Source of the DNA: Gnetum montanum
Taxonomy: Eukaryota; Plantae; Gnetophyta
Length of the DNA stretch: 64,000 nucleotides
Reading direction: 5' to 3'
Assembly: GCA_015680685.1 (NCBI GenBank)
Contig: MNCI01000751.1
Coordinates: forward strand, 483,314 to 547,313
The notes under the pieces are model-generated. The model saw only the letters and a program-made list of their open reading frames with translations, was not told the DNA's origin and ran no database searches. The stretch's first letter is position 1. Every line of letters starts with the position of its first letter. Shown piece by piece: positions 1 to 62,991 of this stretch. The position numbers and the translations under genes were made by a program.

Positions 1-2797
1 AGCCCAAATCTAGTTACAATATTATCTAAGATGAAATGGCAAACCTGTTGAGATGTGATCTTCCATAGGGGGATAGCTTCAACCCACTTTGTAAAATACT
101 CGATGGTGGTGATAATGAAGCTATGTCTTGCAGAAGATTTAAGAGCGATGGGACCTATGATATCTAGTCCCCATTGTTGGAATGACCAAGTAATCTGAGT
201 AGTATGTAATTCGGTTGGCGACACGTGTATTAGATTTGCATATCACTGGCACGTATCACACGTCTTGACTTTGGTAAGGCAGTCTCTTTCCATGTACGAC
301 CAATAGTACCCTAGGCATCTGATTTTAGTGGCCATGGCTCGTGGGGCTACGTGTCCTCCACACAGCCCCTCATGGACCTCACTAACTATTCGCCGTGCTT
401 GATCATTATCGATGCAAGTAAGCAATATCCCATTAAAGGAGCGTCTATAGAGAGTACTATCTCCAATGATTATGTATTTCCTGGCACGTTTGTGCACTGT
501 GTCCTTTTGTGCATGCGTTAGCTCGTGTGGTGGTTCACCATGCAGAAGGTAAGTCTTAATATTGTCATACCATTCTGGTGTTCCTCTTGCATTTAATGAA
601 GAAATATGCACCACTTGGATGAAAAAATCTGTACATTCCATCATCAAAGCGGGCCAAGTGGCAAACAAGCGTGGTGGCACGTTCAATGCCAGGGTGACCA
701 ATGCATCGGCCACAACGTTTTCATTACACGGCACATGCCAGGCATCAACTATCATAAATTGTTTTAGGAGATGTTTAGCCATATCGCAGTAGGGCTGTAG
801 ATGTACAGCTTTGTAGGCATAGACCCCCGTGATTTGATTGATGACCAGCATCGAATCACCTCAGATCGCCAGGTGTTGAACATTGAGTTCTCTGGCTACC
901 AATAATCCCCTGAAGAGTCCCTCATACTCTGCCACATTGTTCATACAAGGGAAGGTTAGGCGGTAAGCCAATGGACACACATATTCAGCTGTAAGCATAA
1001 TCAAAGCGGCAGCACTGCCGCCTCTAGTAGTTGAAGCTCCGTCGAAGTATAACATTGCTTTGAGGCCTGTTGATATAGAACTTAAACTATGTACATGCTC
1101 ATCTGGGAATTTTGGCTCTATCGTAGCTTGATCTTTAGTGGGCGATGTCGCTAGCTTGTCAGCTATGGCCTGACCTTTGGTGGACGATTGGCCGACATAA
1201 TGTAAATCAAATTCGGCTGTGATAGCCTTCCAACGAGCTATCCTGCTACTCTCATATAAGTTGTTTGAGATAGCTCGCAGAACATTACTTTTATAGATTA
1301 TGTTGACCTGACTACAGAAAAGATAATGCCTACATTTTTTAAGTGTGAAGACTAATGCCAAATAGTTACGCTCTACTTCATTGTACCTTGTCTCGTATGC
1401 AAATAGGGCATGACTGAGGTAATAGATAGGGGCTTCAGACCCATCATTACTTTTTTGGTATAGTAACGCAGCTATGGACATGTTTGAGCTAGCTAGATAG
1501 ATGTAAAAAGGTTGATCCCTTTGCGGCAGGAAAACCGTTGGCAAATGTTGTAGCTCCTTTTTTAAATTGTCAAATGTATGCTGGTAGTCATCGGTCCATT
1601 CGAAATTAACACCCTTCTTAAGAAGGTGTTGCATGGGATGTAATTTATTTGTTAATTTTGAAATGAACCACCTGATAAACTGTAGTCTGCCTTGTAACCC
1701 ACGTAGTTCTTTGAGGTTTGTAGGTGGCGTTAGATCGACAATGGCTTTAACTTTATTAGGGTCGACTCGGATTCCAGTCTCTGATACTACAAACCCCAAC
1801 ATGCATCCGATTTTGACTCTGAATACGCATTTCTTTGGGTTAAGCTGCAAGTCATGCTTAAGGCATCGTTTAAGGACTAACTCTAGGTCTTCTAAATGAT
1901 CTTCAAACTTTATAGACTTGACAGCTATGTCATCTACGTAGTCATTCAATCTCCCTAAAAGGTAGTCACTAAAGATGTATGTCATGGCTTGTTGATATGT
2001 TGCCCAGTGTTTTTTAGCCTGAAAGGCATCATATTGTAACAAAAGGTTCCCTAGGGTGTCATGAATGTTGTGGTCAACTGATGCTTCGGGTTGATGCGAA
2101 TTTGATTATAACCTGAGAAACAATCCATAAAGGATAGAAGCACGTGACCAGCTGTTGTGTCGATCAGTTGGTCGATACTTGGTAGTGGAAAATTTTCTTT
2201 AATCGTAGCTTTGTTCAGATCTCAGAAGTCTATGCAAATGTGTATACCTTCGGTTTTCTTAGAGACAACTACGATGTTGGACACCCAATCTGAGTAATCA
2301 ACCACGCGAATGAAACCAGCTTGATATAGCTTGGTGATTTCATTACACACTGCTAACACGATTTCTGGCTTGATCTTTCGTGCCTTCTGTCTAACTGCTT
2401 TGATGTGTGGGTCTAAAATTATGTTATGCTATATTAATCTCGCGTCTAATCCCGACATGTCTTCATATGATCATGCAAATACAACAACGTTGTTTTGGAG
2501 CACTTGTGTTATGCCACTCTGTGTTTGTTGTTCTAAAAGAGAACTAACTCTAAGAGTTTTATTCTCGCCTTTGTGCATAACCAGAGGGACCTTGTCGAGA
2601 GGATCCTCGGTCACATCACCAGCCTCCAGGTCTAGAGTTCGGGCCAAATGTTCTGGTCAATCTGGGGATATTTCCGATGTTGCTATGGTTGCGTCACAAG
2701 GGGTAGGTTCTATTTCTATCAGTGTGTAGTTAGACTATCTAATAGTTTCCCCGTATGGGCCTGTTAAGGCTAATGGTGCAGATAAAGCTGCATCCAT
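1..2797 (-). pseudogene. pol: pol (RT, RNase H, archaeal-type aRH, integrase N-terminus) of E1, with stops and a frameshift
   Basis: RT motifs WVSNIVVV, SFMDCFSGYNQI, YVDD and LNPKKC; RH LYLASS...YNEVE; aRH LYFDGAS...NNVAEYEGL...GDS; integrase HEGLCGGH...CDTCQ and WGLDIIGP. The frame opens at MDAALSAPL (2797). Confidence 0.95.
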
Positions 2798-3371
2798 TTG
2801 TGAATCGCCTTGCAAAAACATCAAAAAAGGAAGTTGTTACATTGTTTTTTTGCTAATCAGTTGAATGATAAGAGTTTGTTTTTGTCTTTTTAGCGTTAAA
2901 GATGCTTCCAGTTTAAGGTCTTAGTGGACTGTTACAAATATGTCCAGTTTGTAAGATAATAACAAGCTCAGCTTCCTAGATGCTGGCGTATGAAATGAAA
3001 TGAAAAGTGTAACGTGACGTGTCTAGCATGTTGTGAAATTTGAGTTTCTGTACAAACTGTAGTTAATGCGACCGGATTACGAGATGATAAATGTATTAGT
3101 TTAAGGTCATTTTGGACCACAATCTACATGATATCAACGAAATTAATGCCCCGATCTTCATGTTTCATGTGATGTTGACACCGGCATTTTGGGAAAGTTC
3201 TGCATCGATCGGATAGAAAGAAAAATTAGTTTCAAGAATTTTGTTTATAAACCAATGGTTCATACTCGAGATGGGTTACAGATATCGTGAATTTTGATTT
3301 TGGCTATAGTAGAAGAGGAGCAGAAGCAAGGTGTAAACTAGAGATTTACGAAAACTCATTCGATTGCAGCC

Positions 3372-6300
3372 ATGGCACCAAAGGTCAAGGGGAAAAACGC
3401 TAAACTGGCTGGGATTGAGGAAGTACAGGAGAGTCTGCAACGGGCTTCACTAGCTAGAGTTGAGGTGCAAGAAGCTATTCTACTTAACCGGTAAATGGTC
3501 GTTCGTCCTTTTGCACTATTGTCATATTTGTTGCAGTGTCATAGTTGTGTATTGTTTTCTTGAATGTATATGTTACGTTGAGCGTTAATATCTATTTACG
3601 TAGGCTGAGCTATTGTGATTTGTGGTATTACCTTCATCTTTGCTGTTGGAGATGAACCTCATATTGTTACGAGGGTTTAGGTAATGTTGGATAATACTGG
3701 ACAAACGTTGTGTATAATCGAAAGACCTCGGTATTATATTTTGTAGGTAGTGTAATCAGGGTTTTATTTTCCTTTTCTTTATTCCTGTAATAGTTGCATG
3801 TTACATTGGAATAATACGCAGCATTTCCTTCATTGCTGTTGTCAGAGACAGACCTTGAGCTGTTGCAAGGGTTTGGGCGATTCTGGCCATGCGTTTCTAG
3901 TGAAATCTGTAATTTTCTGGGAATCAGGTGAACCTTATTATAGCATGATGAATATTTATGTTCAAATGCTTTGTCTAATGGCAACAAGTTTTCATTGTAC
4001 AGTATCATGTTAAAGCCTGTCCTAATCATTTTGGACATCGTGGACGTTCTATGCTGCATGCATGTTCCCACGGCCAATGTTCCTCCTCCTCATGCTCATA
4101 TAAAGGGGGAGGTGGTATGGTTCCGAAGAGGTGTGCAGGGGTTCCTATAGTTTCTACTTCGTAACTACAGCGTAATCATCTATTTGCATCTACCAGGCGA
4201 TGTAGCTACTGCTATTTTGGAGATGTTATTGGTTGGTTCGACGCAGGGCATCTTGGGGTTCCTAACGGACGATAGGATTGAGATTGTGCAAGTGCAAGAC
4301 TGTGAACAAAGCACCAAAGGTTTGAGGCATTTGAGTTGGATCTAGGAGGTGCCGAGATTCAACTGCTATCACTCCTACAATACTCTATTCATGGCTCATC
4401 ACCTCACAACCTATTTCCAGAACCCACCTGGTACTGTGTATTACGCTAGCTGGTAAGAATCTAAATTTGTGTCGTTTCGATGTGTGTCAACGTGCTAACT
4501 ATTGTCTGGATTTACGTCGAGAGTAAAGAATTTGTCCATTTTATGTGATGTAGATTCTTTATCAATGACAGTGGTCTCCTAGGTGCTAATGATACCTTAT
4601 CATTGACCGAAAGGTCTATTAGTGAATTTACTGCTATTAGCAATGTATGGGCCGCTGTCATGGAACAACTAGCATTTGAAATTCCAGAGTACCTGACCCG
4701 CTATGCCAACTTCTTTGCTAGATGTAAAAATTTCAGATGGCTGGATAAGGAATGGACCTTGGATCCTCCCCTTACTGTCATCGACGTGCGAAGGAAAATC
4801 CCTCCATTTCCTTTGACATTCGGACCTGGTAAACTTTGTTACGATGATGAATTGTGTCAATGTTATCAGTTAGCGATGATGTGTTAAGTTGTCTTATTTT
4901 ACTTTTTAGAATCTTGGCTTAGCTATTGTTTTATGTCTGTAGTTAGGGAATCATGGGAAATCATGATCATGGCCTCCGGTCACGATGCGAGCAATATCTT
5001 TTTCCACTATGGTGACATGAAGGAGGCACAATGTTGGCTCGGCCATAGAGCGGCCCTTGCTGTTTTGACCAATAACCTTCAGGAGGCTAGACTAATGGAC
5101 CTGTTCTTGGCCATAACCCCTGATGTTACCGTGGGTGAAATGTTGACCTTAGTCAACTCCTTTAGTGAAGAAGTTGAGTGTCTCTGCGTATGCGTGCGTA
5201 ACGTGTGCATAAATTTTGACATTGACACTCAGCTGTTCCCTAATCTCTTCGAGGTCCCCTTTGATGGCTTTCCTATAGAGGAAAAGTTGAAGAGGAGTGA
5301 AAAATGCCAAGAAGGGATAAAGGAGTGGCTAGGGGTTAAGAAAGAGGCCAAAGGGATTCCTACTGATGGGATTGAGTTGGTGGTGGCCAACACCATTTAC
5401 CCCCTTTTCTGAGCTCGGGCCTTCCCCAAGACACTCTCCCAAGGGAGAATTCTCACTATAGAACAAGCTTGCATTATGCGAGAGGTCATGGAGGAGGGGA
5501 CATGATTCAATTAGACCAGCTATTTTGCTAAAGGCCTGTGCGTTGAAATGGTCAAGCTTCGCAAGAAGCTTGAGTTCCGTTTCAACGTGCATTTTGCATT
5601 TTGCATAGCTTGCTTCCAGTGCTTTGCCGAGTTTCTGGTTGTTCAACGGGATGGAGTCTAGATGTAGCAAGACCGTGACTAGATTTCTAAACCATGGATT
5701 TCCCATATGTTTGGTACTGTCCAGTCACAGGACCCTCCTGAAGGAATTGGGGAGTTGTTATTTTTAACGACTATGGACATGGCGACACCTCGAATGTGGG
5801 GTCCAGACAGCGTGGATGGGGCACTCCCTTCCTATACTAGTGATGCATCGAGGGGGAAGCACCTGGTGGCTGAGATAGTGGACTCGTCGGTGCCTCGGAA
5901 GAAGCCTCGTTTGATCGAGGAGTTTGTCGAGCCAACAAGTAGTGCAAGGCAGAAGATGCAGGTCAAATTTCGGAGGAGTAATCCTCCAGCAAGTAAGCAA
6001 AGGAATGTGCAAATGGTTACATCCATGTTGCGTATAGAAACTTTTATGTTGCGATTTATTGAACTAGAGAAGAATTTTATGTTAACTGAAAACATTATGT
6101 GATAGTGAAGGAGAGGGTTGTACAAAGGTTAACCCCTGAAACAGGGGCTATGATTTTGTGGCACGAGGAAGAGACCCCAGCCTTGGAAGAAGAGGCTGCA
6201 GCAATCAATCAAGTGAGTAGCACGTAGATTCCTGCACGCGAGAAGGGAGCAGTCATGGAAGATGCTGAAGTTCCTTCGGCCCAGACAAGAAGAGGTAAAT

Positions 6301-7795
6301 GATTTGTAACTCTATTAGGCTAAATTTTAGAGCATACTTGACTCTAGGAAATTGCTTCTAAAATTTATATTGATCATCATAATGTTTCAATTATGTCTTC
6401 ATATGGAACTTGTTCTGCATAATAGGTGACCAGGATGTGCACATGTCAACGGTGGCGACTCAATCCTGGGGCGAATTTCCTGATAAATTTGCCTTTATGA
6501 AAGGGGTCGTTCAAGATGTGATCGGTCACTTGGAGCAAATCGATCTTGAAGCAGGTACATCATGATCATTACACAGAAGTTGTTCCATTGTGGTATTGTG
6601 TTATCTAATTATGCCTAACCACCATGCTATGTTATTAGGAGCTCGACTCAGGTGGGATCCATTGGAGCCTATTAATCTAGACACCATCGAACCCTCCTCG
6701 GAAGAGGCTATCGTGCCACACATCATTCATGATGAAATGCATAAATGTGTGGTACGCTCGACTCACTCCTTGTGGGAATGCCAGAGTGTAAACGAAGATC
6801 TTTGGAAAAGATTGCAAAGGTTGGAGAAAGAGAGAGTGGCTCTAGGTGATGAAGTGGGGGACTTGAGATCTCAGAATGAATTCCTGTAGGCTTAGGGGAT
6901 AGGCAACGAGAACTAGTGGATGGCTATTGTAGACTACACCTATTATTGGATGGTCATCTAAAACAACATCCAGACTAGCCATGAACTGGTCGAGCAGCGG
7001 ATGCAAATGGACCTCCTAGCTCAAAAGAATCAAGACTGGAAGGACTATAGTGCAAGTGTGCAAGAATGGGGGCAGATGCAAAAAGATCATAAACATGTCT
7101 ATAAGCAGGACCGCACTACCTACCGTGAACAGTACAGAGACTCTACCATCAAGGCTCAGTCTCTTCAACTATTCCTTGACATTATTGGTGCTTCCTAGTA
7201 CATTTGAAAAGTTCCAGGAGCAAGTGTTGGTGAGCGCCTCTCCAGAAAGGGAAATGACTTTTCCTAGAGGAGAGAAAACTATCCCTTACTTCTTCCCTGA
7301 ACCACCTTGCTGGACTTCTATGGAAAAAGGGAAGAGGAAGGCAGGAACTAGTCTAGGAGATGGGGTTTGGTCTAGGATTACTGAGGACGAGATTATGCAA
7401 GGTCTGTGGATTGGCTTAAAACAAATTCTGTTTGCTACTGATGCAGGACCGTCACAGGTGAGTGTTTATTTTATTATGCCTTTTTTCATACCTAGTTTTG
7501 ATCGTGATGTCAGTATACGTGTTATGTATGATTATAGGAACGACCTGAGGAGGTTCCTCAATGAGGTGAGCATAATGTGGATGACGGCCCTCATGAAGGG
7601 GGTTTGTGAGGGACAGAGCTTAATGGTGGTGATCAATGCCATGGCAAACAACTTCATACAGAAGAGCCTGATAGGGAGGGCCACCTTCATGAAGAAATGC
7701 TACCTGAAAAAGGTGGCCCCTATGAGGACGATTTACTCGGGGTGGAGATTGAGCTGAGGGACACGGGTGACAGTGGGGACAAAGGAGACGCATAA
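3372..7795 (+). pseudogene. Antisense multi-exon accessory gene of E1: FCP1/NIF-like HAD domain, PMD/plant-transposon-protein-like domain, acidic linker, coiled coil
   Basis: ATG 3372 (MAPKVKGK) with donor at 3491. HAD-like exon 4003-4452 (KPVLIILDIVDVLC, WFRRGVQGFL, YHSYNTLFM, QNPPGT). GT-AG introns 4453-4553, 4829-4942, 6295-6425, 6555-6638 and 7458-7537. Stop at 7793-7795. A few in-frame stops. Exons are homologous to those in E2 and E6. Exon structure between 3491 and 4002 is uncertain. Confidence 0.8.
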
Positions 7796-8019
7796 CGTGG
7801 CTGTATTGGCCACAATCCATTTTTTTTATTTTTATGATGAGAAAGACAATATTTTTCTTGACATTTTAATGCAAATTTGATCTAAGTTGATGTTATTTTG
7901 TTGTTACTATTCTTACTTTATGTAAAGTGTAAATTAGGAGGTTTTGATGTTATGAGAAATGACAGATAGTTTTAGGCGTATAGTGTAAATGAAGTTACTA
8001 GTTTAAAGTCATTGCAGGC

Positions 8020-8400
8020 TACTGGATAAATCGGGTGCAAAGCGTAAATAAGGCAACTAGTCTTGGGCCATTTCGGCCCTTTGACTAGCTCAAGCGTAAA
8101 CTATGATTTAAATAGGTAGTTTAAGGCCATTGCGGGCCATGGGTAGTTTTAGGCCATTCTGGGCTGTGTATAGTTTTAGGCCATTCCGAGCCATGTATAG
8201 TTTTAGGCCATTTCAGGCCGTGTATAGTTTTAGGCCATTTCGGGTCGTGAGTATGTGGTGAAGGGATAGCGTAAATGTCACTAAGTTGCCAATTTTAAGC
8301 CTTGGTAGGCTGTGATTAGTTTAAGGCCATTTCAGGCCTTTTGATAGTTTTAGGCCATTCTAGGCCTTGTATAGTTTTAGGCCATTTTGGGCTGTGGGTA
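8020..8400. repeat. Tandem array of ~28-30 bp units, TAGTTT(T/A)AGGCCATT(T/C)NGGCC
   Basis: About ten visible copies, located just downstream of the gag-PR stop in element orientation. Confidence 0.9.
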
Positions 8401-8609
8401 GCATACATGATTAATTTTAGATAAAGTTAAAAGTGAAAAAGATAACTAGTAGGAGCGTAAAAACATAAGCATAAATGGAAACAGCTTGTGGAAGTGTAAA
8501 AATAAGCCTAAGCATAAAATGAGCATAGCTGGTGGATGCAAGGGTGGGATAGCATGATGAAATAAAACATGCATAAACTATACGGTAATCAGATGACCTG
8601 GTTTACTGG

Positions 8610-11600
8610 CTAGCCCTGTAATTGTTTCCTGATTGCTTTTATTTTTGGTGACACGTAAAGACAAGGTGATTTACCATCCTTTTCCTTCACATCACACTCC
8701 TCTTCTGGGAATGGTAGCTTGGCCCAAGTTAGGCTATCATTAGCCACTATTTCGGCTTGTTCAAGTATTCAGACAGGGGACTGATCTTTAGACATTTCGA
8801 TTTTCGACCCCAGCTCCGTTTCTATGTTATTAACAGCTTGAGGGGTTATTTCATCACCGTGGATAACCACCTCTCCTCCTGTGTAGGGTAGATGGATCTC
8901 CTGATGTATAAGTGATGAAACTACCCTTAGTTGAGCCAACCAAGACCTCCCCAGGATCAAGTTGAAGCCAGGCATCTCTTCGACAATAATGAAGGTTGCG
9001 TATGTGGGGAATTGCTCCCCCGCCATGAAGTTGATGTGCACAATGCCTTTGACATGAACTTGTGCCCTGTTGAATGACTTTAAACATGACGTGGTGGTAG
9101 CACTGATCTGATTGATTAGACCTAGCTTATCCACTATGGGGTAGGGGATGACATTAGTGGTCGTTCCATCATCCACATGTACCCTCTGAATTCGGTGTTG
9201 ACCAATCCAAATTGTGATGAACATGGGTGCTGTTGTCACATGATCCTTTTCTGGGTCACCCTTAATGGATTCATCGTGAAAGGTCAAGAGGGGAGGCCTT
9301 GGTTTCTCAGCCGCGAGAGGAAGCATAATGGAATGAATCGCTTCTTCATCCATGGGTAGGCCTTCATCCACAGGTATGGACGTTAGCATGTGAACCATAG
9401 CCTCACGATGTTTTGTGACGTCATGAGTAAGTCATAAAGGCTCAAAGTTGTATTTTTTTGTTTTAAGCTTGTTTGACTTACGTAAAGGCATTGAAGAGAT
9501 CCCGCCCACGATTTGGCTGCTTGTCACCCTTTTCCTCTTTCATTTTCCCTAGGAGATAAATTTCTTGGGGAGGAGTGATATTCAGTCGAAGGCTGTGCTT
9601 CTTTCTACCAAGAGTAGATGGTTGCGTTTGTGTAACTTCACCATCTTTAGAAAATGAGGCCAAGGGTATAGAGGTGAGGGGTTTAGGCTTGGGAAACCCC
9701 AACGTAAGACGATTCTTGGTCGTACCAGTTGTCATACCTCCTTCTCCTTTTCTATTAAATTAGGATCAAGAGTTTGACTTGGAGGTTTGCCCTTGTGTAG
9801 GAGGGATTGTTGATGGTTTTGGCACCCTGATGACAAAGGGGGCCTTAGGCATAGGTGTAGGCTAGACTGTGGCTTTACCGACAGTGGGTTGTCAAGAATT
9901 TGTTTGAGAAGGGGCTCAAAGGATAAAAGGTTGTCGTGGAGCACCTCTTGTCGATGCTATTGAATCCATTGTTTGGGGAGAACGAGGATGCATTTGTAGC
10001 ATGAAAGGTTGTTTCGGTTGTGCCTGATTATCGCCCTCTACTCCTACCACGTTAATTGTGTACCCTGCATTATTTGCATTTAACGAGTCTTGGTACACAT
10101 GCAAGGCTTGGTTTTTCAGGCAAGCTGGACTACTGCTATCCAAGATCAGGTTACCTTGATCAATCATGCATTGAATGTCATCTTTCAATGCCCAGCAGTA
10201 ATCCATGTCATGACTGCACAATTGATGGTAGTCGCAGAATCGATCTAGCCTAAAGTTCTTGGGAACCAGTGGTTCATTAGGTTGTGCCAAGGAGGGGTTC
10301 TTGAGTAACTCACAATGGCACCTGTGATATTTCAGGGCCTCCTCGAACACTAACTTGTGTTGGATGTAACTGGTTCCCAGTAATTGCTTTAAAATTTCTA
10401 AAGGCTTCATAGGTAGAGTCGCGTAATTTGAGTGGTCCTTACGCTCAAATTTTGGCCTTGGTTGTGGGGGTGTTTTAGGGGTGGAAGGAGCTTCTTGATT
10501 GGGGCTATTTGAGCTAGTTGTCAGCTTGGCAGGCTCTGTAGTTATTTTCTTGTTGTTGTTGTTTTTCTTCTTGGCCCCCTCAGCAACAGCCGCTACTTTT
10601 GTTGTCGTGGATTTTCCTTTGTCTTTACCCTTGCTGTGGGTGTTTTTGTAGACTACATACGCTAGATCTTTACTAGCCTCCACTGCATCTTGGATGCTCT
10701 TAGTCTGAGCAAAGGCTTGACTGAGGGAATGGGGAGCGAGGTAATACAGCTTAGACTTGATGAAGTCATTGATCGCTCCCTTGAAGATTGCCAGTAGATG
10801 GGCTTCTGCGATGGGTTTGCAGATTTCATTCAAGGTAGCGTTTCAGCGCTGTATAAACTTTTGGACTGACTCGAGTGGGTCTTGTTTAACTCCCATGAGC
10901 TTGTCCAGTGTGACTTCTGGCTTCAGGTTGTATTTGAAACGAGTCACAAATTGGGTTAACAGCTCTTCCAAGGTTGAGATGGAAGCGTGTGGAAGTGCTC
11001 GATACCAGTCCAAAGCTTTACCTGTTAAGGACATAGCAAAGACACGGATTATAGTATGTGGCCATTGTTGCAGCAATAAGGACTCTGACCTGAAAGTAAT
11101 GAGGTGGGCGTTGGGATCACCTTCCCCATTGTATTTTGTGAAATGGGGAAGGGGCATCCCAGGTGACAACGACAGGACTGGGACTACTGGGCTAATAGGA
11201 TCATCATGGTAGAAATCCATGACTTGTACCATGTTAGAGCCAGTAGCCTTGAGACGCTTAACCTCTTCTGTAAGGGTCTGGATGAGCTGGAAGGCTTGGT
11301 CCAGACCCGCAGATGACGAGGTCATTTGTGGAACAGAAGGAGGAGCCACACTGGGTGGCGACACAGAGCCAACAACTTGGCCAATGGTCGGTGCTATTGA
11401 GATAGTCCCTACAGGCAATGTTGCTTGTGGCATCTACCATCCGGTGGTTGGTGCGGATGGGGGAACCACCATCGGCTACGCCATTGTGTAACTGGGGGCA
11501 CGGACAGTGATCCTACAACTGGGTTTAGCACTTGTGGGACCTAGCCTTGAAGGTGGGGATGGTGGTGCATTTGCGCAGGATGCACAACAAGAGACATGTT

Positions 11601-12341
11601 GGGATCCCACCATGCTGTGGTGGCAGGCCTTGTCGTGTGAATTGGGAGCATAGTCGGCGTTGTAGGTATCGTGTGCACATGTGGTGGCACAGGCATAGGC
11701 ACATGATGAGGTGGGTTAGGTAATCATGCCTGCTGAGGAATGATCTGTGATGGACCGTCACCTGAGAAGATAGTCGGAGAGAGAAAATGTAAACATGGTG
11801 AATGCGGGACTCGATCGATGTTAGACAACGTCAAAGGTGTGGTGATCATGAACAATGGATTTACATGAGACACTGTGGAGGGAGGGGCCATGGTGAAATT
11901 AGCATGACTACCTCCCTTAGAGTGAGATTCTAGATCGTCTCTTCTATTGTAAAGCGTTTCATCATGGAACAAGGCCTCTAGTTGTTCTAGCGATGTCTTT
12001 GCCATCAACATTTGATCTAGGATCCACTTTTGTTGATCTATTAGGGGTATGAAAGTGCTAGGCGTAGGAATGAGTTCCTTCCCGTTGCAGTACATGAGCT
12101 TGTACTCTCGTTTTTCCTCGAGTTCTTGTGGATACATAGGCAGGTTTGCCGCTAACTTAACATACAGGAAATTTTAGCTTTCCCTGCACTGAGCTTGTCC
12201 CTTAGGCTCCTTGTTTTGTAGCCTGAGGGAGCGGTGTGGTCACACCAGACTAAGTGGTTGCTTGACCATGGGAGGCATGACTTGCATGGTCCAATGGTTC
12301 TCAAGGCTAGTAGTGTCAACGGAAGTAGTTGATGTAGTCAT
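8610..12341 (-). pseudogene. gag: gag-protease of E1
   Basis: Retrotrans_gag-like core (YNGEGDPNAHL, SLTGKALDWY), Tat-type knuckle FCDYHQLCSHDMDYC, aspartic protease RVHVDDGTTTNVIP...FNLILGRSWL. Ends IRKQLQG* at 8610-8612. Interrupted by several stops. Confidence 0.9.
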
Positions 12342-12428: not shown

Positions 12429-13956
12429 TGTAGGATTTCAAAGGAATCGTCGAAGCAACCGATCTGCACCACATAATTTCGTAAACAACCTCGAAGGTAT
12501 TACGTTTACGTTGATTGATAATGGGGGCAGATAGCTTACAAGACTACATGTAAAATACGGATTGGATATCAAGGCCCTCCTTCTAGCACCAGAGAACTAT
12601 TAAGATGGAAAACGTCGGTCACTGGAAATACTGAACGAAAGTCCATGTACATAGTTTTAACTCCGGATCTGTGCAAGGACTGTGCTGGAGAAAGAAATGA
12701 ATCTGAGGTACCCTGAACGGTCTTGTCGATTAGACAGGGACTTACTTAATCAGTAAAATTTTTGTAATAATTTGATGACAAAATGACGACTCTTTATGAG
12801 GAGATGCAATATTGTTAATCCTAAAGAAAATAATTGAAAGCGATGTAAATGTAGAGGGATTGCCAAATCTGTATAAATGAGACGCAAGGAATTAGACTTA
12901 TAGAAAGTATGATCACAAGATCTGAGATTTAATTTATGAACACAATATGTCGGATGCAATGATTATAGAAAGGCTTCAGTTTGGATGAAGCACATGCTAA
13001 TAGTAGGAAAGGAGATGAAACAAGCAAGGGTCAATCTACCTTGTTCTAGCCAATTTGGGCACAAGGAAGTTAGACCCCGGGGGTAGAATATCTATCAGCC
13101 GATTGTTTCTGATCAAGGATTCTTGCCAATCAACTCTGATACTCTCACGATCATTGATCCTCTTTTGCTCTCTTTCCAACCTTGAAGGAGAAAAATTTTG
13201 CTAACCCTATTGATCTTCGTCAACTAGAGCATTTATAAGGTTAGGGTCAGGAGGAAAATGTGGTTTAAGTAATGCATGTCCTGAACTCATAAGATGCCGT
13301 TGACTCAATGTGTTGTTGTTGAAGCTTGCGACGCTATGCTGCGTAGCGTGTCGTAAACTACCCTCATGTGGGCTTTGGCAACAAACTATCCTTTGATTAG
13401 GCTGTAATATGCTAGAGAGCGTATTATGGCATATGAACTACTGATGTCTAAATTGTGCTTTTTGTTACTTGCATTACGCTGCATTACACTAAATTACACA
13501 TCATAGCCTAATTCAGCATAAAATAACAAAACCGCAAAATTTGAAGTATTGTTATGATGCTTCCTCTGTTTCTGATCAATCCCTTTTGGCGCTTTATTAA
13601 GCCGCACTACGTAACACAATGTAATGGCCCCCCCGTTAGCCATTTTTTGATGCTGTGGTAGACTGTCTTTGATATTATGCTGCGTATCGCGGCATTACGC
13701 TATGTTGTGTAATGCAGCATAATGTACTAAATGTTGAGATTTTGGAACATAGAAAACTCGCAAAGTGGAAGACTTGCTGTCGTGCACCCATTGTTTTGTC
13801 CTGTCTCCTGAAGTTCATCCGTATTGTGCTGTGCCTTGTCGCGACTCCCTGCTTGGGTCACTAGATTTTTCCAAACCGTTGAGGCTTCAGAAATTTTATG
13901 GTGTTTCAACAAGGTGGTGAAAAATTAAAAATTTTGACCAAGTATGGGTGACTACA
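12429..13956 (-). repeat. 5' LTR of E1 (~1.5 kb)
   Basis: Minus-strand termini TGTAG...CTACA, TATAAAT at ~13232-13238, and a 3' end similar to 23012-23050 of E2. The partner LTR is outside the window, so the ends are inferred. Confidence 0.65.
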
Positions 13957-14466: not shown

Positions 14467-17400
14467 GGTGTTGCTAAAGCCTGTGTTGATCATCATGGAG
14501 CTCATGGGCATCCTATGTTGCATAAGTGAACCCATTCTAAACATGCCTATGCTAGATATGAGGGTGGGCCATCAGGTGGTGTGGTTTCAACTAGGGGCTC
14601 TTGAGTTCCTAAAATACTTTTTGTAGTAGTTTAGTATGATCATGTGGTCACACTTGGTAGTGGAGGCTGCTAATGCCATCACCGAGACCTTGCTGCCCAG
14701 GCTAATTAGGACATGTTGAGGTTCATGTCAAATGAACCTACTACTAGTGGTAATGGGGTAGGTGGTTCAAGTAGAGGTCTTAGGGATGCTTGGCACTTAT
14801 CTAGGATAGGGAACATGATGGGGTTTGGTTGCTACAATAAGAGAAACACCCTTTTTGTTGCATTATGAATGCATACCCTATTCTAGAACCCACCTAGAAT
14901 TGTCTACTATGTAAGAGGGTAAGTGCGTTCCTGATTTTCACAGTGTGTTTTTGTTACTTTCCCATGTTAGATTTCTAATGACTTGTGGTTAATTCTAGGT
15001 TTAGAGTTGACGAGGAGGGCCTACATGATGAGGCAGACACTCTAGCCTTGGCCAGTACTACCCTAAAGGTGTTCTCATCTAGCTTGAATGTTTGGGAAGC
15101 TGTGATTGAGTAGGTGGGGCCTGATCTGGAGGGCTATCCTATTCAATACCCAAAGGCATATGAGCAATGTAAGATCCATGGTTGGTGTGTTTTTGTTACT
15201 TTTCCATGTTTGATTGCTAATGACTTGTGGTTAATGCTAGGTTTAGAGTTGACGAGGAGGGCCTACATGATGAGGCAGACACTCTAGCTTTAACTTGTAC
15301 TACCTTAGAGGTGTTCTCATCTAGCTCAAATGTTTGGGTAGCTATGATCAAGTAGGTGGGGCTCGATTTGAAGGCCTACCCTACCTTATACCCAAAGGCA
15401 TATGAGCGATGTAGGATCCATGGTTGGTTAGATGAGGATGGGCTACTAACTAAGGAGATACTTGTAGTGCAACCTCCATCCTACATCTCATTTGTGCCAT
15501 GTATGCATCTAAGATTTATCTCATGTGCTTGCTTATGTATGCCTATTAGTTTGTCTTTTCATGATGCTAATATTATTTTTCCTTTCTTGTAGTGGCAGTT
15601 TCCTTAGGTGAGATGATGGTGCTCACCACAGGCCACATAGAGGTCACCCTCATCATGAAGTATGATGATGTAGAGGATGCACAACATTGGTTATGTCATA
15701 AAGCCTTAGATGCATTGATTTATTGGCTCATGTATGCAAGGTTGATAGACCTATTTTTGGCCCTGCCTGAGTATCCTGATGGCCAAAATGGTCACCATCC
15801 ATCAAATCTTTTAGTAGTGACTTAGGAAGTTTTTCCAAATGCACAGTATGATGATAGTGCTTGACCTTATCGAGGCCTTCTTTACTAACCTCTTTGGCCT
15901 CCCCATTGATGGCCTGACAATTATTGATAAGGCTAGTAAGGAGGTGGACCATAGAGAGAAGATTGAGGACTAGTTGGAGGCCACCCAATCTCACAAGGGC
16001 ATACCAATTAAAGATGTGCTTGTGCTTGAGGTGTGGGATCTCTACCCTCTTTTCCACACTCATGCCTTTCTGAAGTTGCTCTCCCAAGGAAAGATCCTTG
16101 GGGTGGAACATGCATGGATGATGAAGGAGGTGCTACTGGAGGGGGCAAGGTTCAATTGAGCTACCTATATAGCTACCGACTTGCATGCATAGATCTCTAG
16201 GTTGTGGTTTAACCTCTAGGTGAAGTTCCATGTCCACTTTGTGTTCTTCATAGGATACCTATGAAGGTTTGCGAAGCTCTTAGTTGTGCATGACGATGGA
16301 TGATGGGTTGTGTAGAATCATGAGCATCTCTCCAAGCCATGGATTAAGCACATGTTCATGACCACTTGCACATAGGACCCCCTAGAGGGGATCGATGAGT
16401 CATTATCTGTAACAACAAAGGGTCCTATGTGGTAGTCACATCATTCATATGATAGCGTAGGTGAGGGCCCTCTAGTTGGCATTGGGAATATGAGTAATGA
16501 AGATTGCTATATCTCGGAGATGATGGGACTATCTAAGGTAAAGATTAAGAGACTACATCCTATAGAGGAGGTTGCCTCTAAGGTTAGGAGGCTAAGTAGC
16601 AAGAGGATCTGTATTAGATTTCAAGGCTTACAGATAGAGGTTGCAAGTTAGTATTTGTAAATTTCTTAGATGGACTAATTGTACTTTTTTGTATATTTAT
16701 GTTTTTATATTTTTCTTTCATGTTATGTGGTTAACTAACTAATTATGTGCATAATTTGTACTGATGTGCTATGCATGTATGTGTGTTACTTGTAGAGATA
16801 GGAGAGAAGGCTATAGAAGCAGTGGAAAAAGCAGTAGTAAAAGAAGCACCTCCTCAAGCTAAGGAGGAGGATGCTCAAGGAGATGATCCTCATAAGGTAG
16901 TGGAAGTCCTTTAGCACTTGGAGGAGAAGGGGTTGCTCCATCCTAATGGGGGTGATTTTGATAGCCTGTTTGATGATGCGCAGCTGGGTGAGCCCCCTGC
17001 ACTCATGCTTGAGGACCTGCTAGGTAACTATCTTGGATTGCCATATGTTATTGCGTATTTTCTCTAGCATCTTTAGTTGTTCAATTATATGCTAATTGCA
17101 TTCTTGTGTTACAACATTATATCACCTTGCCAATGGTCCCACGTCTACCTACCACATGGAGCCATGGGTAGACATGCCTAATAAACTCACCTTCATGGAA
17201 GGCATTGTTGAGGACATAGTGGACCACTTGCAATAGGTGAATCTTGAGTGTGGTATGTGTGTTGTTGCTTTGCCTTATGTTACTTTACTACTTTCCTATT
17301 TAGTTATTGGCTAAGATTGATTGATTGTTGCATGCCTACAGGTCCTAAGTTTCAGTGGAATCTAAGTAAGGTGGCCAAGGTGGATGTCCTCCCTGACCTT

Positions 17401-18400
17401 CCTCTTGAAATTGATCAGGTGTCTCATTGCATGTATAAGACATTGAACAAGTGTGTGCTTTCTTGTGCAAAGGTGTTATCGGTTTGTAGGTGCTTATATG
17501 AGCACATGTGGAAATGCATGCGTGAGTTACAGAAGAGAGTGACTAGCCAAGATATGAAGATCAATGATCTTTAATCTAGATATGATTTCTTGGTAGCTAG
17601 ATCTTAGGGAAATAGCACCTGGTGTACCTCTCAAATAGAGTATGCTTGATACTAGATAACTCTTAGAGGCAAGAATGAGGCCACACTAGAGTTGATAGAG
17701 TAGTAGTTGCAGATGGACTTTCTTGCCCAAAAGAATTAAGATTTGAAAAATTATAGTAAAAAGGTGTATAGATGGGGGTAGACTCAGAAGAATCATAAGC
17801 ACCAATACAAGTGCTAGTGTGACACATACCTTTACTTGTACAAGGACAAGTCTACCAAAATTCTCTGCCTCAAGATATTTCTTGAGGTGATTGGAAGGAG
17901 GTAAGCATACGAGTTGTTTTCATGGCATACGATGATGAGTGGCTCTCTTGAGAGGAAGATTATCACCCCTTTAGGAGAGGTTTCTTTTACTACCTTCTTG
18001 ATGGAGCTACTCACATGGACTTCCATGGACAAAGGCAAGACCCTTGTAGGGATTAACTTTGGCTAGGAAGACTAGACACAACCTTTTCAGACCAAGATCC
18101 TCCAGCGCTTGGAGGTTGGCCTTGGAAAGTTACCTCTAGAACACACCGATGCAAGACCCTCTCAAGTTAATTCTTATTTTTTATGCTTTTCACATGTTTT
18201 GGGTTAGCTTGTATCATGTAGGTTTGCTTACTAATAACACCTATTTACTATGGTTTTTGTAGTATGTACTAAGAGATGCTACATGCCCCAACAATGTAGT
18301 GGAGGATGAAGAAGCTCCACCCCCACCTAGAGCCATCGATTGAGCATGACTTGATGTACCCTTGCTACTAGGAATTTTTGCTAAAGTTTTTCCGCATAGC
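14467..18400 (+). pseudogene. Antisense accessory gene of E2 (FCP1-like, PMD-like, coiled coil), degenerate
   Basis: LLKPVLIIMELMGILCC...VVWFQLGALEFLKYFL**FSMIMWSH...YNKRNTLFV...NPPR. Introns 14919-14998 and 15501-15592 match the E1 positions and phases. Also GARFN*ATYIA and QMDFLAQKN. Confidence 0.8.
14943..15426 (+). repeat. 242-bp direct tandem duplication (splice acceptor plus partial exon)
   Basis: 14943-15184 and 15185-15426 align closely. Confidence 0.9.
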
Positions 18401-31998: not shown

Positions 31999-32034
31999 CC
32001 AATGATCATCAAATAGTGGGCCTACTTACAATGA

Positions 32035-32172
32035 TCTTCTAGGGCCTAAAATTGGTGACACAAGGTGCCGAGGCCTGAAACTAGCACCATGGTCTACTAT
32101 GACCTTAAACTAGCACCATGACTTGCAAGGGCCTTAAACTAGTACTATGGCTTGCCATGGACTTAAACTAGA
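32035..32172. repeat. GGCCTTAAACTAGCACCAT array downstream of pol
   Basis: About five copies; reverse complement of the E1/E2 array motif. Confidence 0.85.
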
Positions 32173-45977: not shown

Positions 45978-47039
45978 GGGATGAAATTCTTTTTTAACAT
46001 CAAAAGTGAAGGGATGGTGAATACAAGCTTGTGTAGAATAGGCCTTACTCACTCCCTAATCTTGCAAAGATTAGGAAGTATTTGCCCAAGTAAAGTTCAC
46101 TTTAACCTTTCCATTCCTCTACAACATATAGCCTTACTTTTCTTTTGTAGTTTATTATATCTTTGTTATTTTATGCACATAGCCTATGCATGTAGCCTAA
46201 GTTTGTTTGCAATTTTTTCTATTTACTAAAGCCTTTCTTATGATTGAAAATAGCATTATAAATATACATCTCTTTAATACCTTGTCCACTTAGATGTTAA
46301 ATTGGCATTATGATCTGCTAGGACATTAAAGTGGCATTATTCTCAACTAAGATGTTAAACTGCCATTATGGCCTACCATGGCCTTAAACTAGAAACATAG
46401 CCATAATTGTGTAAACCTGTGCTCATGATGGCCTAAAACTAGTAGACATCTTACTTATTATGACACTTCTTCTTGTTGATTAGCCATTAAATGTTATAAC
46501 CAAAAACATAAACATAGCTATTTTCAATGTTTATAACATTTACAATGTTTACTACTACTATAAATGCATATAGCCAAAATACAACCAAAATTTAAAATTA
46601 AAGCTAAAATGTCTATAACATACATAGCTATGGCCACACTATGTGATAAAAATGTCAAAGAATAACAACCATCTATAGCATAGTCTTGGCTAATCATAGC
46701 CATCAACATGAAAAGGAAAATAAAGAGCCCACAAGCTAAACTAAAGAAGGCTACTAAGTGGCATCCAAAGAAGGAAGTGGTGGGTCATTTCCACTCTCAC
46801 CGTTGGGGCCACCAATGTCTCCTAAGGCCTGAAATGCAACAACGTATAGCTAGTTAGTAACCTATAGCCAAAATCATGACATAAAAGAAAAACTAAAACA
46901 TAAAATGCATCAAACTTATGGGGTATTGATCTTAGGATGACCAATGTAGCACAAGATACCAACCAACTCCACTATGATAAGCATAGGCCTCAAAAATACT
47001 TTGTGTGAAGTAAAGCACAAAACCATTATAACTAATTAA

Positions 47040-57934: not shown

Positions 57935-60900
57935 TCACTCAAGGTGAAAAATTATCAATTTTAATGTTTTTAAATAGGTTTTTGAAGTTAATCCTTTTTT
58001 TCCACATTGAGCCTTTCCTCTATGGGGGTATGTTAGTGTGGAGGATTTCAAGGGATTGATTTTTAACAAATTTTGATAGGCTTTTTGCATGCATGTGCAT
58101 TCTTAGGATTATTAGTGTTGCTAGACACTGAACAAGATTAAAAGTTGTTAGTTTTAAGGCTTTTAAGTTAATTTTTTGAAGTTACCTACTTATTTCCATG
58201 CTAAGCTAGTCCCCACCCCCTATCTAGGGGGATAAGCTAGGGGGTAAGAACCAAGGGGGTTACTGACTATCGGAGGTCATAGAGGGGTAACAAGGCTCTC
58301 AATGCAAGAACTATGGGTAATAGAGGTTGGGGAAGAGGTATTTTATGTTATAACCCCTTAAACCCCCATGTTGGCCCCACATTGGATACCATGGAGGGGG
58401 GATTCACCAACATGAGGTATGATACAAGGTTACAAGTTGTCTTGTTTGAATGCAAGAGATAGGCTATTGGAGGTTGTAGAAGAGTATAAAGGCCAAACAT
58501 GGTAACTAGGTGGTCAATTTGTTCAATTTTGTGTCACCTCCTCCTAGATGGTTAGTATAGATGAGGGTTACTCCTCCTTGTTCCATGCTAATTCCACCTC
58601 CCCCACTACCCACCCGCTCCCCCACACCCCCATTCCCTCCCCACACCNNNNNNNNNNNNNNNNNNNNNNNNNNNNNNNNNNNNNNNNNNNNNNNNNNNNN
58701 NNNNNNNNNNNNNNNNNNNNNNNNNNNNNNNNNNNNNNNNNNNNNNNNNNNNNNNNNNNNNNNNNNNNNNNNNNNNNNNNNNNNNNNNNNNNNNNNNNNN
58801 NNNNNNNNNNNNNNNNNNNNNNNNNNNNNNNNNNNNNNNNNNNNNNNNNNNNNNNNNNNNNNNNNNNNNNNNNNNNNNNNNNNNNNNNNNNNNNNNNNNN
58901 NNNNNNNNNNNNNNNNNNNNNNNNNNNNNNNNNNNNNNNNNNNNNNNNNNNNNNNNNNNNNNNNNNNNNNNNNNNNNNNNNNNNNNNNNNNNNNNNNNNN
59001 NNNNNNNNNNNNNNNNNNNNNNNNNNNNNNNNNNNNNNNNNNNNNNNNNNNNNNNNNNNNNNNNNNNNNNNNNNNNNNNNNNNNNNNNNNNNNNNNNNNN
59101 NNNNNNNNNNNNNNNNNNNNNNNNNNNNNNNNNNNNNNNNNNNNNNNNNNNNNNNNNNNNNNNNNNNNNNNNNNNNNNNNNNNNNNNNNNNNNNNNNNNN
59201 NNNNNNNNNNNNNNNNNNNNNNNNNNNNNNNNNNNNNNNNNNNNNNNNNNNNNNNNNNNNNNNNNNNNNNNNNNNNNNNNNNNNNNNNNNNNNNNNNNNN
59301 NNNNNNNNNNNNNNNNNNNNNNNNNNNNNNNNNNNNNNNNNNNNNNNNNNNNNNNNNNNNNNNNNNNNNNNNNNNATTTTTGAAATTAGGCTTGCTTTTT
59401 CAAGTGCTTTTTCCAAAAATTCTCATGTTGAGGCCATTTTTCTTAAGTATACGGCCAGGGACTCATTAAAATTAAATTATAATGGCATCCTAAGGCCTTA
59501 TTTTGTGCATTTTGTGATGGATTGATGTTAATTTTATGCTTTTTGTTTAAGAAAAAGCAAGTTATGTTGTGTATTTTTTTATTAGAAAAATGGATTAAGT
59601 TTTGAAAAATTTAATGTTTTTAGTTTTTAGTGTTGTATTTAAGATTTGAAATGGATGTGATCTTGTTTAATTTGGAGTTATAGTGATGATGTTATGGCTA
59701 TTTTAGTTTGGTTGTGCAATTAGGGATCTATGCCGTGTTTTAGATTTTTATCAAAATTAAAGAATTTTTTTTTTGAAGAAATGGATAAGTTTATGAATTT
59801 GTATAGAGTATGGGTGTGTAGGGATCAATCCAAGTTTTCAAATAGAGGTGGAATGAGACCAAATGAATTTTTTATGAATTTCTTCCTAACCTTGTGCAAA
59901 TGGGGGTTGATGGTGATGGCCACAGTTTTGTTATTTTTTGCTATGTTTTGTGTAAGAATGGCTAAATGTTTTTTGTTGCAACAATCATGGATAGAAATTT
60001 CATGATTTCAAGGTTCCTTTCATGGTGGAATCCCTATGATCAAGGCTAAGATGAATTTTGTAATAAGGTTGTGTTAATTGGTCTAAATTGGGCTATAGCA
60101 CTTTATTCCTTTGAGGATGGATGTGGTTGTCATGGTTAGGATTGTCAACCCCCATGCTTCTATGGATTTTACTTTTTATAAATTATGTTATAATTTTTTT
60201 GTGTGTTTGTTAAAGAGAAAAGATTTTTACTATTTTTAGTAAGCCTTTTTATCTATGTATATTATGGCCACTTTTCTATGTTTTGATTCTTTTTCTAAAT
60301 TAATGCATGTTTTGAGCTAAGGCGGAGTTTTGGTTGTGATGTTTTGGTTATAATAGTTTTGGCTATGATATAAGTCTAGGAGAGTTCATAATAATATATT
60401 TACTTTTTGTGAATTTTCTTAAGCAAATTTAAACCAACACCCTAAAGCTTTTATAGAAGCTAATTTCACCCCTGACTAGGATGTGTAAAAGTTTTTAAGA
60501 AGATTCTAAGTGTTGGAATGTTGTGCTAATGTTGTTGTTTTATACTTCCCCCCTATAGGGTCTTGGTCAAGTTGGTGCTCAGTGTGGTTGAGATGGCTAG
60601 CATTCTCTGCTATCTCGGTTAACATACATACGATACTCCTCTTCCTGACTTGGCATTGGAGAAGATGTTAGCATGGTTGCACCTAGGCACAAGGGATTTT
60701 TTTGCCTACCTTCTCCAATACTTTAGTGTGAGGATGTGGTCATACTTGTCTAAGGAGGTGGCCACAATCATCATGGAGACTTTGCTACTTGGTTCTACAT
60801 GCTTAATTGCTCAATTTATAATGGATGGACTAGAGACTTGAGTAGTAAGAGAGCTATTGTATTTCATCAGTCCATGGTACCTTTTAAATAATTGGAGCAA

Positions 60901-62991
60901 ATTTAGAGTATTCATGATACAACATGAATAATACTCTAATGGTGGTGTAAAGAGTCCACTCTTTGTTCTAGAATCCTCCAAGAACTATGCACTGATTACA
61001 AGGATAAGCACGACTATTATAGGTTTTAATATTTTGGTTTTATCTAGTTTAGTCTTCTCTCTTCTAACTTGTTGGTTTTACACATATCTTAAAGGTATAG
61101 GGTTAATAATCAAGGTTTGATCAAGAATGATCAAACCTTAATGGTAACCCATACCACATTGAATGAATTCACCAAGGGTCCCAAGATTAGATATGTTGTT
61201 TTCAAATAGCTAAACGGGGACTTGGATGAATATCCAAGTAGATTTGACCCTATTTACAAAAAGTGTGTGGTTGCCAAAACAACACACAACTGGTGGATGA
61301 TCCCTAAGGATATTAGAGATATGAGTATTATCATTGGGACCTCCAACAAAGAAGAAGAAGAGTGAGAAATCAAGTATATTGTTATGTTAAAGGTTTTATG
61401 GTTACTTAGGCTTTAATTTCTTATGGCTAAAACATAGTTGTATTAATGCCAAACACTTATCTTTTGCTTATAGGACCTTCCACTTTTGCAAATGTTATCA
61501 TACCCCTCATTGGACATTCTGTGGAGAATCTCATGCTAAAGTTTGGTGAGGTGGGACTAGCATAGGAATGGTTAAGAATGCATCTAAAGACATTCAAGCA
61601 AACATTGCGAATGTAGGTTTGCTTGAGATCTTCATCATTCCCAACCCTATCATTCATTCTACAAAGATGTTGAACAACATTGATTCTTTTGATGAAAAAG
61701 CTGATGTATTCTACACCATAGTACAAGGATTATCTATTACTATTTCCATTAGTGCATCTACCTTCCATGGCTTATTTGGTGTTTCTATTGATGGGATGTA
61801 GCTTTACAAACCTTGATGTAAAAGGGTCTTATCCCTTGTTTAGATCTAGGGTATTTCCTAAACTATTATCATAAAAGAAGGTTATTGGCATTGTACAAGG
61901 ATGGACCTTTAATAAAGTTGTGATAGAGGAAACTTGTTTTAACTTGATTGCTTCCTTAGTTACAAGTCTCAAAGAGGAAATCCTCAAAATTCATGTAGAA
62001 TCTTTTAGAGTAGTCCACATGCACCATGAATGTTTTGCAAGCTATTTGAAGAGGTTTCCAGAATTTTTGATGGTGAGGAGAGGTGGATTGTGGATGCACT
62101 AGGACCCACAGTAACTCTCTAGGCTTTAGATAAAGCATTTTATCCAATCATAAGGGCCCAAAATCCATTGAACGATATGAGAGATTTACTAGTCATGACC
62201 ATCAATGATCTTGATGTCAATTAGTGTGAATCCCTTGACAACATGGGGGAGGTACCTCTTACGTTTCCAACAAACATCAAGAGGGCCCAACGGTTGTGTG
62301 CTAAAGCTAGCAAAGAAGCCAAGGCTATTTCAATGAGGCCCATAGAGGAAGCACCACTAGTAGTAGAGCCACACTCAAAGAAAATAATTATCTTCAAGAT
62401 CACACACTTGGACTAAGCAATCACAAGTATACTTCTACTATATTTTATTTTTCCTTTTTAGGTAGGTTTTTGGTTATGTTTTGTTCTATGGCTATTCATG
62501 TTAATTTATCTAATGGTTTATGACTATAAATCAATGGTAGAACCTGGTAGCTCAAGTTTCTACTATAAAAGAAGAACAAAGGCAAGTAGAAGAGGCACAT
62601 AGGCATGTTGATGAAGAAGAGTAGAGGAACAAGGCCATGCTAGAGGAAGAATAGAGGCATGCAAAGAAAGCACTCTTGCAATAAGATATGGATGACTTGA
62701 TGCCTTTTTCAGTGGATCACTTCCTAGGGAGTCTCTGATTGAAATTCCCAATGATGATGAAGACAATCATGAGAAGGAAGTGAACAACACAGTTATACTT
62801 ATGCTCTACTTATTATTACCTATAGTTTAATGTTTGATTTTAGATTTCTCACTTATCCAACAATTGTTATGCTTATCGTAGTTCCTAAGGTAGCAGTAGA
62901 GGCCCATGTACCTAAGTTTTGCTTGAAACAATGGCTAGACATCTTGGACAAGATAAAATTCATGCACAAGATGGCAAAGGACATCGTTGGT
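57935..62991 (-). mobile_element. Spacer region of a further Tat-lineage copy E6, interrupted by E5 and an Athila-like element
   Basis: 59376-60550 resembles the reverse complement of 47000-48300, and the region carries the accessory gene on the plus strand. Confidence 0.7.
60559..62991 (+). pseudogene. Antisense accessory gene of E6 (FCP1-like, PMD-like), degenerate
   Basis: Acceptor TATAG at 60558, then VLVKLVLSVVEMASILCY...WLHLGTRDFFAYLLQYFSVRMWSY...YNMNNTLMV...NPPRT. Next exon YRVNNQGL; later EETCFNLIASL. Confidence 0.75.

Follow-up and report, generated by a model that had tools for sequence, protein, structure and literature searches.

The closest described systems to the locus presented here are the extra open reading frames (ORFs) of Tat/Ogre and Retand retrotransposons, which, as far as the accessible text of the reports goes, encode PMD-CC or Transposase_28 proteins and lie 5' of gag or 3' of pol (PMC4408406, PMC6317226, PMC7264820, PMC11963269). 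The order of RNase H, archaeal-type RNase H and integrase (RH-aRH-INT) is stated to mark Ogre/Retand-like Tat elements, and REXdb recognises only a 5' and a 3' class of extra ORFs (PMC6317226). In the same partly available body of text, Tat extra ORFs are often composed of a PMD and a coiled coil, multi-intron genes with a PMD are called typical of MULEs (PMC4408406), and PF20167 is reported from an extra ORF of Athila (PMC11728184). Antisense ORFs 3' of pol have likewise been described (PMC7264820, PMC11963269); roles in import or regulation were proposed for them, and the function of the extra ORFs is referred to as an open question (PMC7264820).

Two further systems are of relevance. In orchids, a Gypsy element has fixed a captured AlkB demethylase domain in an extra ORF; the catalytic residues of this enzyme are intact, and it shows activity in vitro (PMC9289625). 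Among host genes, a PMD is paired with a phosphatase fold in MAIN/MAIL1-PP7L and in the MAIL3 PMD-PP7 fusion; PP7 and PP7L are PPP metallophosphatases that help to silence transposons, and PP7L is described as inactive (PMC7156037, PMC11180769). A report of a phosphatase in a retrotransposon extra ORF, or of a gene between gag and pol, was not found in the literature outside subscription papers. HAD/NIF is absent from the REXdb domain table (supplement 4, covering domains found in at least 5 elements; PMC6317226), and the accessible text of a 121-genome screen names no phosphatase (PMC9289625). Since both detect open ORFs or strong CDD matches, a spliced and divergent gene would be missed by them.

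The window, i.e. the whole 64-kb stretch of DNA that was analysed, is a nest of plant LTR retrotransposons. In one of these, E1, a decayed gene of eight predicted exons and about 1,096 codons (3372-7795, plus strand) sits between gag-protease and the reverse transcriptase (RT), on the strand opposite to both. The element and its accessory gene comprise the following features:

4..2808, minus strand: pol of E1, with RT, RNase H, archaeal-type RNase H and the start of the integrase (Pfam RVT_1, RT_RNaseH, RVT_3; translation)
8675..11433, minus strand: gag and protease of E1 (Pfam Retrotrans_gag, E=1e-6; gag-asp_proteas, E=0.17)
2809..8674, minus strand: candidate Ogre-like intron holding the antisense gene, with a fitting phase-1 GT donor and phase-1 AG acceptor
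3372..3490, plus strand: predicted exon 1, with ATG, basic N-terminus, open frame and a GT donor whose phase 2 fits exon 2
4003..4452, plus strand: predicted exon 2, NIF/HAD-like domain with two in-frame stops (sub-threshold Pfam NIF match, DLNG-type NIF profile, hhalign)
4554..4828, plus strand: predicted exon 3, linker that belongs to no family, with phase 2/phase 1 introns also present in E2 and 33% identity to E2
4943..5992, plus strand: predicted exon 4, middle domain (PMD/PTTA-like candidate) and basic patch, with six stops and 40% identity to E2
5893..5913, plus strand: PRKKPRL, candidate nuclear localisation signal, recognised by eye
6106-6294, 6426-6554, 6639-7457 (one frameshift) and 7538-7795, plus strand: predicted exons 5-8, from intron phases and 33-38% identity to E2
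7990..8400, plus strand: tandem array of 27-29 bp units downstream of the gene, one unit of which also lies at 3097

As judged from its domain order, in which RVT_1, RT_RNaseH and RVT_3 are followed by an integrase zinc finger and the aRH thus lies between RH and INT, E1 is a Tat-type Ty3/gypsy element. Its gag extends from 11433 to 9916 and its protease starts at 9431 (both minus strand), with the RT following 5.9 kb further on. E1 hence shares with the Tat/Ogre and Retand elements the RH-aRH-INT order, a gag-protease separated from pol, an antisense accessory ORF, a likely coiled coil and tandem arrays. It differs from them in that its gene lies between protease and RT, a position that the accessible text of the published surveys does not list, is predicted to contain seven introns, encodes a NIF domain at the N-terminus, and has a PMD only as a candidate. 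Relatives of the RT were not found in a scan of viral sequences; a metagenome scan gave 8 loci with 28-61% over partial lengths.

The spacer invites comparison with the intron between protease and RT of Ogre (cited in the accessible text of PMC4408406), as in both cases the gag-protease frame ends before pol and a phase-compatible donor and acceptor are present; in E1, the phase-1 donor at 8674 and the phase-1 acceptor at 2809 would join protease to pol on the minus strand. Unlike the Ogre intron, however, the candidate intron of E1 is 5.9 kb long and holds a gene, its splicing is a prediction, and its donor is not conserved in E2; the acceptor TGCAAG is conserved in the related elements E3 and E4. 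Upstream of gag, a short conserved coding stretch (11724-12173 in E1 and 22448-22600 in E2, both minus strand; 35% over 51 aa) gave no Pfam match and is perhaps the true gag N-terminus. The probable 5' LTR of E1 lies at 12500-13520 (minus strand), with a TATA-like box near 13237 (by eye), and since it has no second copy in the window, E1 looks inserted into the spacer of E2.

Within the accessory gene, GT-AG borders are present at 7/7 introns, and the frame fits directly in six of them and in the seventh after the one frameshift in exon 7, near which 1-base indels also occur in relatives (read mapping). The region 4003-5760, to which the initial annotation refers, falls within exons 2-4, and the end of exon 4, formerly set at 6010, is more likely 5992 by phase fit. 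Besides the stops in exons 2 and 4, one is found at the exon 2-3 junction. For exon 1, no homologue was found in other copies when the frames of the window were searched. Exons 5-8 would encode an acidic, likely coiled-coil region and an acidic tail; matches to coiled-coil families are weak (Pfam, E 0.07-0.1). Three further copies of the gene occur in the window, and all four are decayed:

14468..18183, plus strand: E2 accessory gene copy (Glu type), adjoining the protease-gag of E2 at 19306-21918 (minus strand), with a 242-bp duplication of exon 3
46913..47014, minus strand: E5 remnant limited to the initial ~30 codons of the HAD exon, lying 5.8 kb upstream of the pol at 52840 (plus strand) and antisense to it
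60560..62168, plus strand: E6 copy, heavily decayed, recognised by homology to E1

The comparison of E1 with E2 demonstrates that the gene evolved under coding constraint. Seven aligned segments (734 codons; shuffle z of the exon alignments 17-90) show 33-51% amino acid identity and mismatches of 0.45/0.35/0.62 at codon positions 1/2/3, next to 0.36/0.24/0.61 in the protease, which served as control. A frame-blind DNA alignment of ~543 codons again gave 0.45/0.35/0.62, with a third-position excess of P=6e-19. The HAD exon, at 41-51% identity and likewise with a third-position excess, is as constrained as the other exons; among the 40 differences listed at >=45% in its wider family, the excess is mild (17/13/10). 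The family to which E1 belongs is very large, with relatives covering 30/30 bins over 2400-9000 in 36,538 and 37,537 contigs at >=80% in two DNA runs, and sequencing runs labelled with four organisms contain relatives. A small number of DNA contigs pass directly from the array unit at 3097 (~3115) to the array at ~8117-8317 and so omit the whole gene (3115-8317); given sides of only 20-22 bases, which makes them weak, they may be deletion derivatives or repeat artefacts.

RNA coverage of the gene is low (depth 0-9), and none of the 15 of 365 joints listed is a spliced read. Most of the 380 reads in run X11 are <90% alike to E1 and therefore derive from other copies, and 14 X11 reads cross the donor of exon 2 without a break and go on into sequence that does not resemble exon 3. 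In X11, the prevailing mate orientation over the gene is opposite to that over the pol side, a weak hint, subject to how strand-specific the library is, at antisense transcription of the gene; the 179 reads of X14 show no orientation bias. The phases of introns 2 and 3, which connect the HAD exon with the middle exon, are identical in E1 and E2. As such, the joining of HAD exon and middle domain proposed by the initial annotation agrees with the predicted in-frame splicing, and given that no spliced joint is among those listed, the fusion is predicted rather than seen.

For the ancestry of exon 2, the Pfam NIF family (PF03031) provides a first indication, being the sole Pfam match on the whole exon and occurring in E1 only among the copies, at 15.2 and 16.5 bits (E=0.018 and 0.0071), below the cut-off of 21.8 bits. 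For comparison, viral contigs were scanned with a motif-IV pattern, and 20/20 loci obtained (L009-L028) encode one family, of which 3/3 tested are NIF at E about 1e-16 (Pfam). All comparators with an N-terminus (18/18) read D-(L/I)-N-G, i.e. they have Asn at position +2 of motif I. These DLNG-type proteins, which are presumably 'C1271.03c-like', are small (160-190 aa), retain the DD of motif IV and reside on viral contigs of up to 204 kb, one of them named GVMAG. With a profile of five of them, pieces of E1, E2 and E6 were the top 4 of 852 six-frame chunks of the window, and E1 scored 9.7 bits, compared to 8.3 for the best of 1000 shuffles. Residues 7-143 of E1 exon 2 align to HMM positions 4-136 with motifs I-IV co-linear, and hhalign supports the relation over 123 columns (P=0.00026; probability 42%, with thin profiles). 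Because the comparators were chosen with a motif-IV pattern, the agreement in that half partly reflects how they were picked; the top chunks, however, match in the N-terminal half, which the pattern did not select. A word-index protein search with E1 exon 2 gave no match among 151 candidates, and an AlphaFold2 model of the HAD domain, built from a 6-row alignment only, reached pLDDT 50 and pTM 0.35. From these profile comparisons, exon 2 is of NIF ancestry, and it has the co-linear motifs I-IV and the NTL..xx.......NP spacing of the DLNG-type NIF/FCP1-homology proteins. Identity to them is ~20%, and the +2 Asn, the Lys of motif III and the DD of motif IV are all replaced in exon 2. The motifs in E1 are located as follows:

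4034..4048, plus strand: HAD motif I, D-I-V-D-V, nucleophile Asp (GAC) kept, +2 position Val
4181..4189, plus strand: motif II region, Ser here in E2, E6 and most E1 relatives
4325..4327, plus strand: motif III position, where the references have Lys, E1 has Arg and E2 has Trp
4394..4399, plus strand: position of the motif IV DD, replaced by Ala-His in E1 and without acidic residues in most relatives

We use the roles of the HAD motifs, including Mg binding by motif IV, as given in the accessible text of PMC8069645. The motif I strings of the initial annotation are all present (DIVDV at 4034(+), ELMGI at 14498(+), ELVGI at 46969(-), EMASI at 60590(+)), and alignment across copies and relatives gave a hydrophobic residue at motif I +2 (Val in E1, Met in E2, Val in E5, Ala in E6) and a non-acidic motif IV. 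The latter was correctly noted for three copies and reads Ala-His (E1), Ala-Leu (E2) and Val-stop (E6) when aligned to the DD of real NIF proteins. The Lys of motif III is absent from E1 and E2, with E5 and E6 not alignable there. In a survey of exon 2 over four runs (2,346-3,187 contigs per run; depth-weighted, restricted to relatives at >=80% and blind to variants below 45%), motif IV was in the majority non-acidic in 4/4 runs, motif II was mostly Ser as in E2/E6, and none of all 40 differences at >=45% falls within 4022-4065 or on motif III. As the residues of motifs III and IV are missing in the copies and most relatives, their loss is a family trait that predates the decay. The same was previously assumed for a shared change from Asp to Glu at motif I, which does not hold: Glu occurs in three of four copies (E2, E5 and E6) and hence marks a subfamily, while E1 and most of its relatives keep Asp. 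Neither is DxDx(T/V) the appropriate baseline, given that the nearest reference subfamily has D-x-N-G throughout. Taken together, the NIF domain is likely catalytically dead, judging from its residues, and the description as an apparent pseudophosphatase in a Gypsy element remains apt. E1 thereby resembles the orchid element in having fixed a captured enzyme domain, and differs from it in that catalytic residues, which AlkB has kept, are absent.

The relationship of the middle domain to PMDs proved more difficult to assess. Pfam matches to PF10536 or PF20167 were found in no copy or sub-piece, with a true PMD (L029) scoring E=1.9e-62 to PF10536 as control. Searches of NCBIfam (0/6 proteins) and of 1.84 billion representatives by HMMER (alignment A1) gave no match, nor did word-index protein searches with exon 4 (1626 candidates) and alignment A2 (306 candidates). 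Sequence searches of the PDB yielded chance matches only (best E 0.038 and 0.34) and nothing for the middle domain, 0 of 59 metagenome stretches obtained in a scan for exon 4 were related, and scans of viral contigs with PMD patterns returned 0. An AlphaFold2 model (pLDDT 36) led in a fold search to generic helices (best Z 4.2), which is uninformative.

Direct comparison therefore relied on the one PMD reference, L029 (CAYOJU010000329.1). This intron-containing PMD gene stems from a bacterial MAG labelled Sideroxydans and is likely part of a plant contig binned in error. The best alignment of A1 with it places the following motif opposite LWGLPIQG:

5224..5268, plus strand: LFxxPxDG motif, weakly aligned to LWGLPIQG of the true PMD L029

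It pairs LFGxPIDG and the next helix with LWGLPIQG (hhalign, 38 columns, P=0.0082, probability 4.8%), and the match of this pre-named motif at the predicted place was reached by 3/1000 shuffles; A1 showed no similarity to A2 or A3, which served as negative controls. In single-sequence comparisons with L029, 1/8 exon-4 pieces had p<0.01, compared to 1/6 controls at p=0.016. The PMD core ERWxPETHTF..GE.T.TL.DV and the later G.AVLA.LY helix, as present in L029, gave no significant alignment with the middle domain. The middle-exon strings of the initial annotation exist (DTQLFPNLF at 5224, SASTFHGLF at 61751); its 'G.RFNW..Y' does not, as a regex search found RFNW or FNW..Y in none of six frames. 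The site at 5497..5514 (plus strand) reads GT*FN* in E1, GARFN* in E2 and TCFNL in E6, so that 'G.RFNW' represents an interpolation across stops. Of the proposed PMD/PTTA resemblance, the short LxGLPIxG match to one true PMD thus persists, and family assignment by Pfam and alignment of the PMD core do not. In our estimation the match is suggestive of a PMD-related domain, with the chances lying slightly on the other side, and does not amount to membership.

From our point of view, and with somewhat more confidence than doubt, E1 represents a high-copy Tat-type family with a conserved antisense gene between protease and RT. In the predicted protein of ~1,100 residues, the NIF domain is likely dead and the helical domain possibly related to PMDs, and the protein likely helps the element from within the nucleus. 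With its basic patches, dead HAD fold, helical domain, likely coiled coil and acidic ends, such a product would be in keeping with a nuclear factor. The gene would be driven by a separate promoter on the opposite strand, its introns would stay intact through retrotransposition since the genomic RNA carries them in antisense, and the spacer that holds it would probably be removed from the gag-pol mRNA as an Ogre-like intron. The dead HAD fold may bind partners, a phosphorylated one for instance, or serve as a scaffold. The middle domain and the coiled coil may bind DNA of the element and keep it transcribed, with the 27-29 bp arrays as candidate target sites by analogy with VANC proteins. The same array follows the gene in E2 (18585-18819) and in E5 (46391, 46441), and arrays of this unit flank pol in E3/E4. 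That the protein is anti-silencing is, however, a guess by analogy which we regard as rather doubtful. The full model, in which a spliced antisense gene nested in a gag-pol intron encodes a HAD pseudophosphatase with a remote PMD that binds the arrays and blocks silencing, as a convergent counterpart of PMD-PP7L on the side of the element, and in which gag-pol splicing and accessory expression are coupled at one locus, appears unlikely to us. The parallel to MAIN/MAIL1-PP7L drawn by the initial annotation has to be narrowed accordingly: the MAIL3 fusion and the description of PP7L as inactive are confirmed in the accessible text (PMC7156037, PMC11180769), but PP7L is a PPP-family metallophosphatase of the host and not a HAD protein, and the parallel is hence analogy only. 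The E1 gene has no Metallophos match (Pfam), its domain being HAD-type. If the PMD link is true, the pairing of a PMD with a dead phosphatase would have arisen twice from unrelated folds, once in the host and once in an element. E1 presents a captured enzyme fold which lacks its active site and is yet under selection in a family of very high copy number.

The gene and its dead NIF domain could also be real while the middle domain is unrelated to PMDs or a helical domain of the Transposase_32/Athila-ORF1 type, with a role in particle assembly, nuclear import or integration targeting instead of anti-silencing. The unmatched PMD core and the missing PF10536 match speak for this, as do the PF20167 domain of the Athila extra ORF (PMC11728184) and the import or regulation roles proposed for antisense ORFs (PMC7264820). 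Against it stand the lack of a PF20167 match (hmmscan), the position of the LxGLPIxG match, where predicted, and the PMD plus coiled coil frequent in Tat extra ORFs (accessible text of PMC4408406). We rate this alternative as rather improbable. One could also imagine that an altered activity of the HAD domain persists in the Asp-type (E1) subfamily, which retains the nucleophile and mostly a motif-II Ser and descends from a subfamily that, with Asn at +2, tolerates non-canonical motifs, or that the domain is a decaying passenger from a host gene without present role, the difference in motif I between copies (D vs E) agreeing with either. A non-acidic Mg-binding motif IV in 3/3 window copies and most relatives is at odds with activity, however, and a HAD exon whose constraint between E1 and E2 equals that of the other exons is unlike a passenger, and we deem both quite improbable.

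Least probable, and indeed very improbable in our view, is that the gene belongs to a separate element, either Mutator/CACTA-like or a non-autonomous unit, nested between protease and RT. It would draw on the multi-intron PMD genes typical of MULEs (accessible text of PMC4408406), on the boundaries of E1, which are not fixed with the 3' LTR outside the window, on E3, which has no accessory gene nearby, and on the few gene-skipping contigs. Yet the orientation of the gene and its neighbours (array, then protease) are alike in E1 and E2, the spacer leads to the RT in E5/E6, the gene has diverged (33-51% aa) in step with protease and RT (50-52%), and no transposase was seen.

With regard to the favoured reading of an accessory gene belonging to the Tat-type element, its position upstream of the RT recurs in the window: E5 and E6 have 1.3 kb of upstream sequence in common, followed by a 181-bp repeat region, and this is co-linear with the sequence leading up to the RTs at 28667 and 52840. 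The latter belong to E3 and E4 (25260-34519 and 49581-57934, plus strand), two related pol-bearing elements (74% over 5 kb) in which tandem repeats of 181 bp lie ahead of the RT. No gag-protease was found near either, and no Pfam match in 9/12 flank frames scanned for E3. We considered E3/E4 as pol-only partners of a bipartite pair, but their co-linearity with E5/E6 suggests truncation instead.

Further repeats and elements are present in the window. An array of 82-93 bp units with a partly palindromic GGAGAGCATAGTC core occupies 24315-24962 and 14045-14100, the core thus recurring upstream of the E2 accessory gene. A different LTR element family is found at 39110-45975 and 63001-63884, with a gag (40794-41930) followed by a protease-like ORF and with LTR-like repeats in three places. 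Finally, an 82-bp near-perfect palindrome (88%) lies at 35382-35463.
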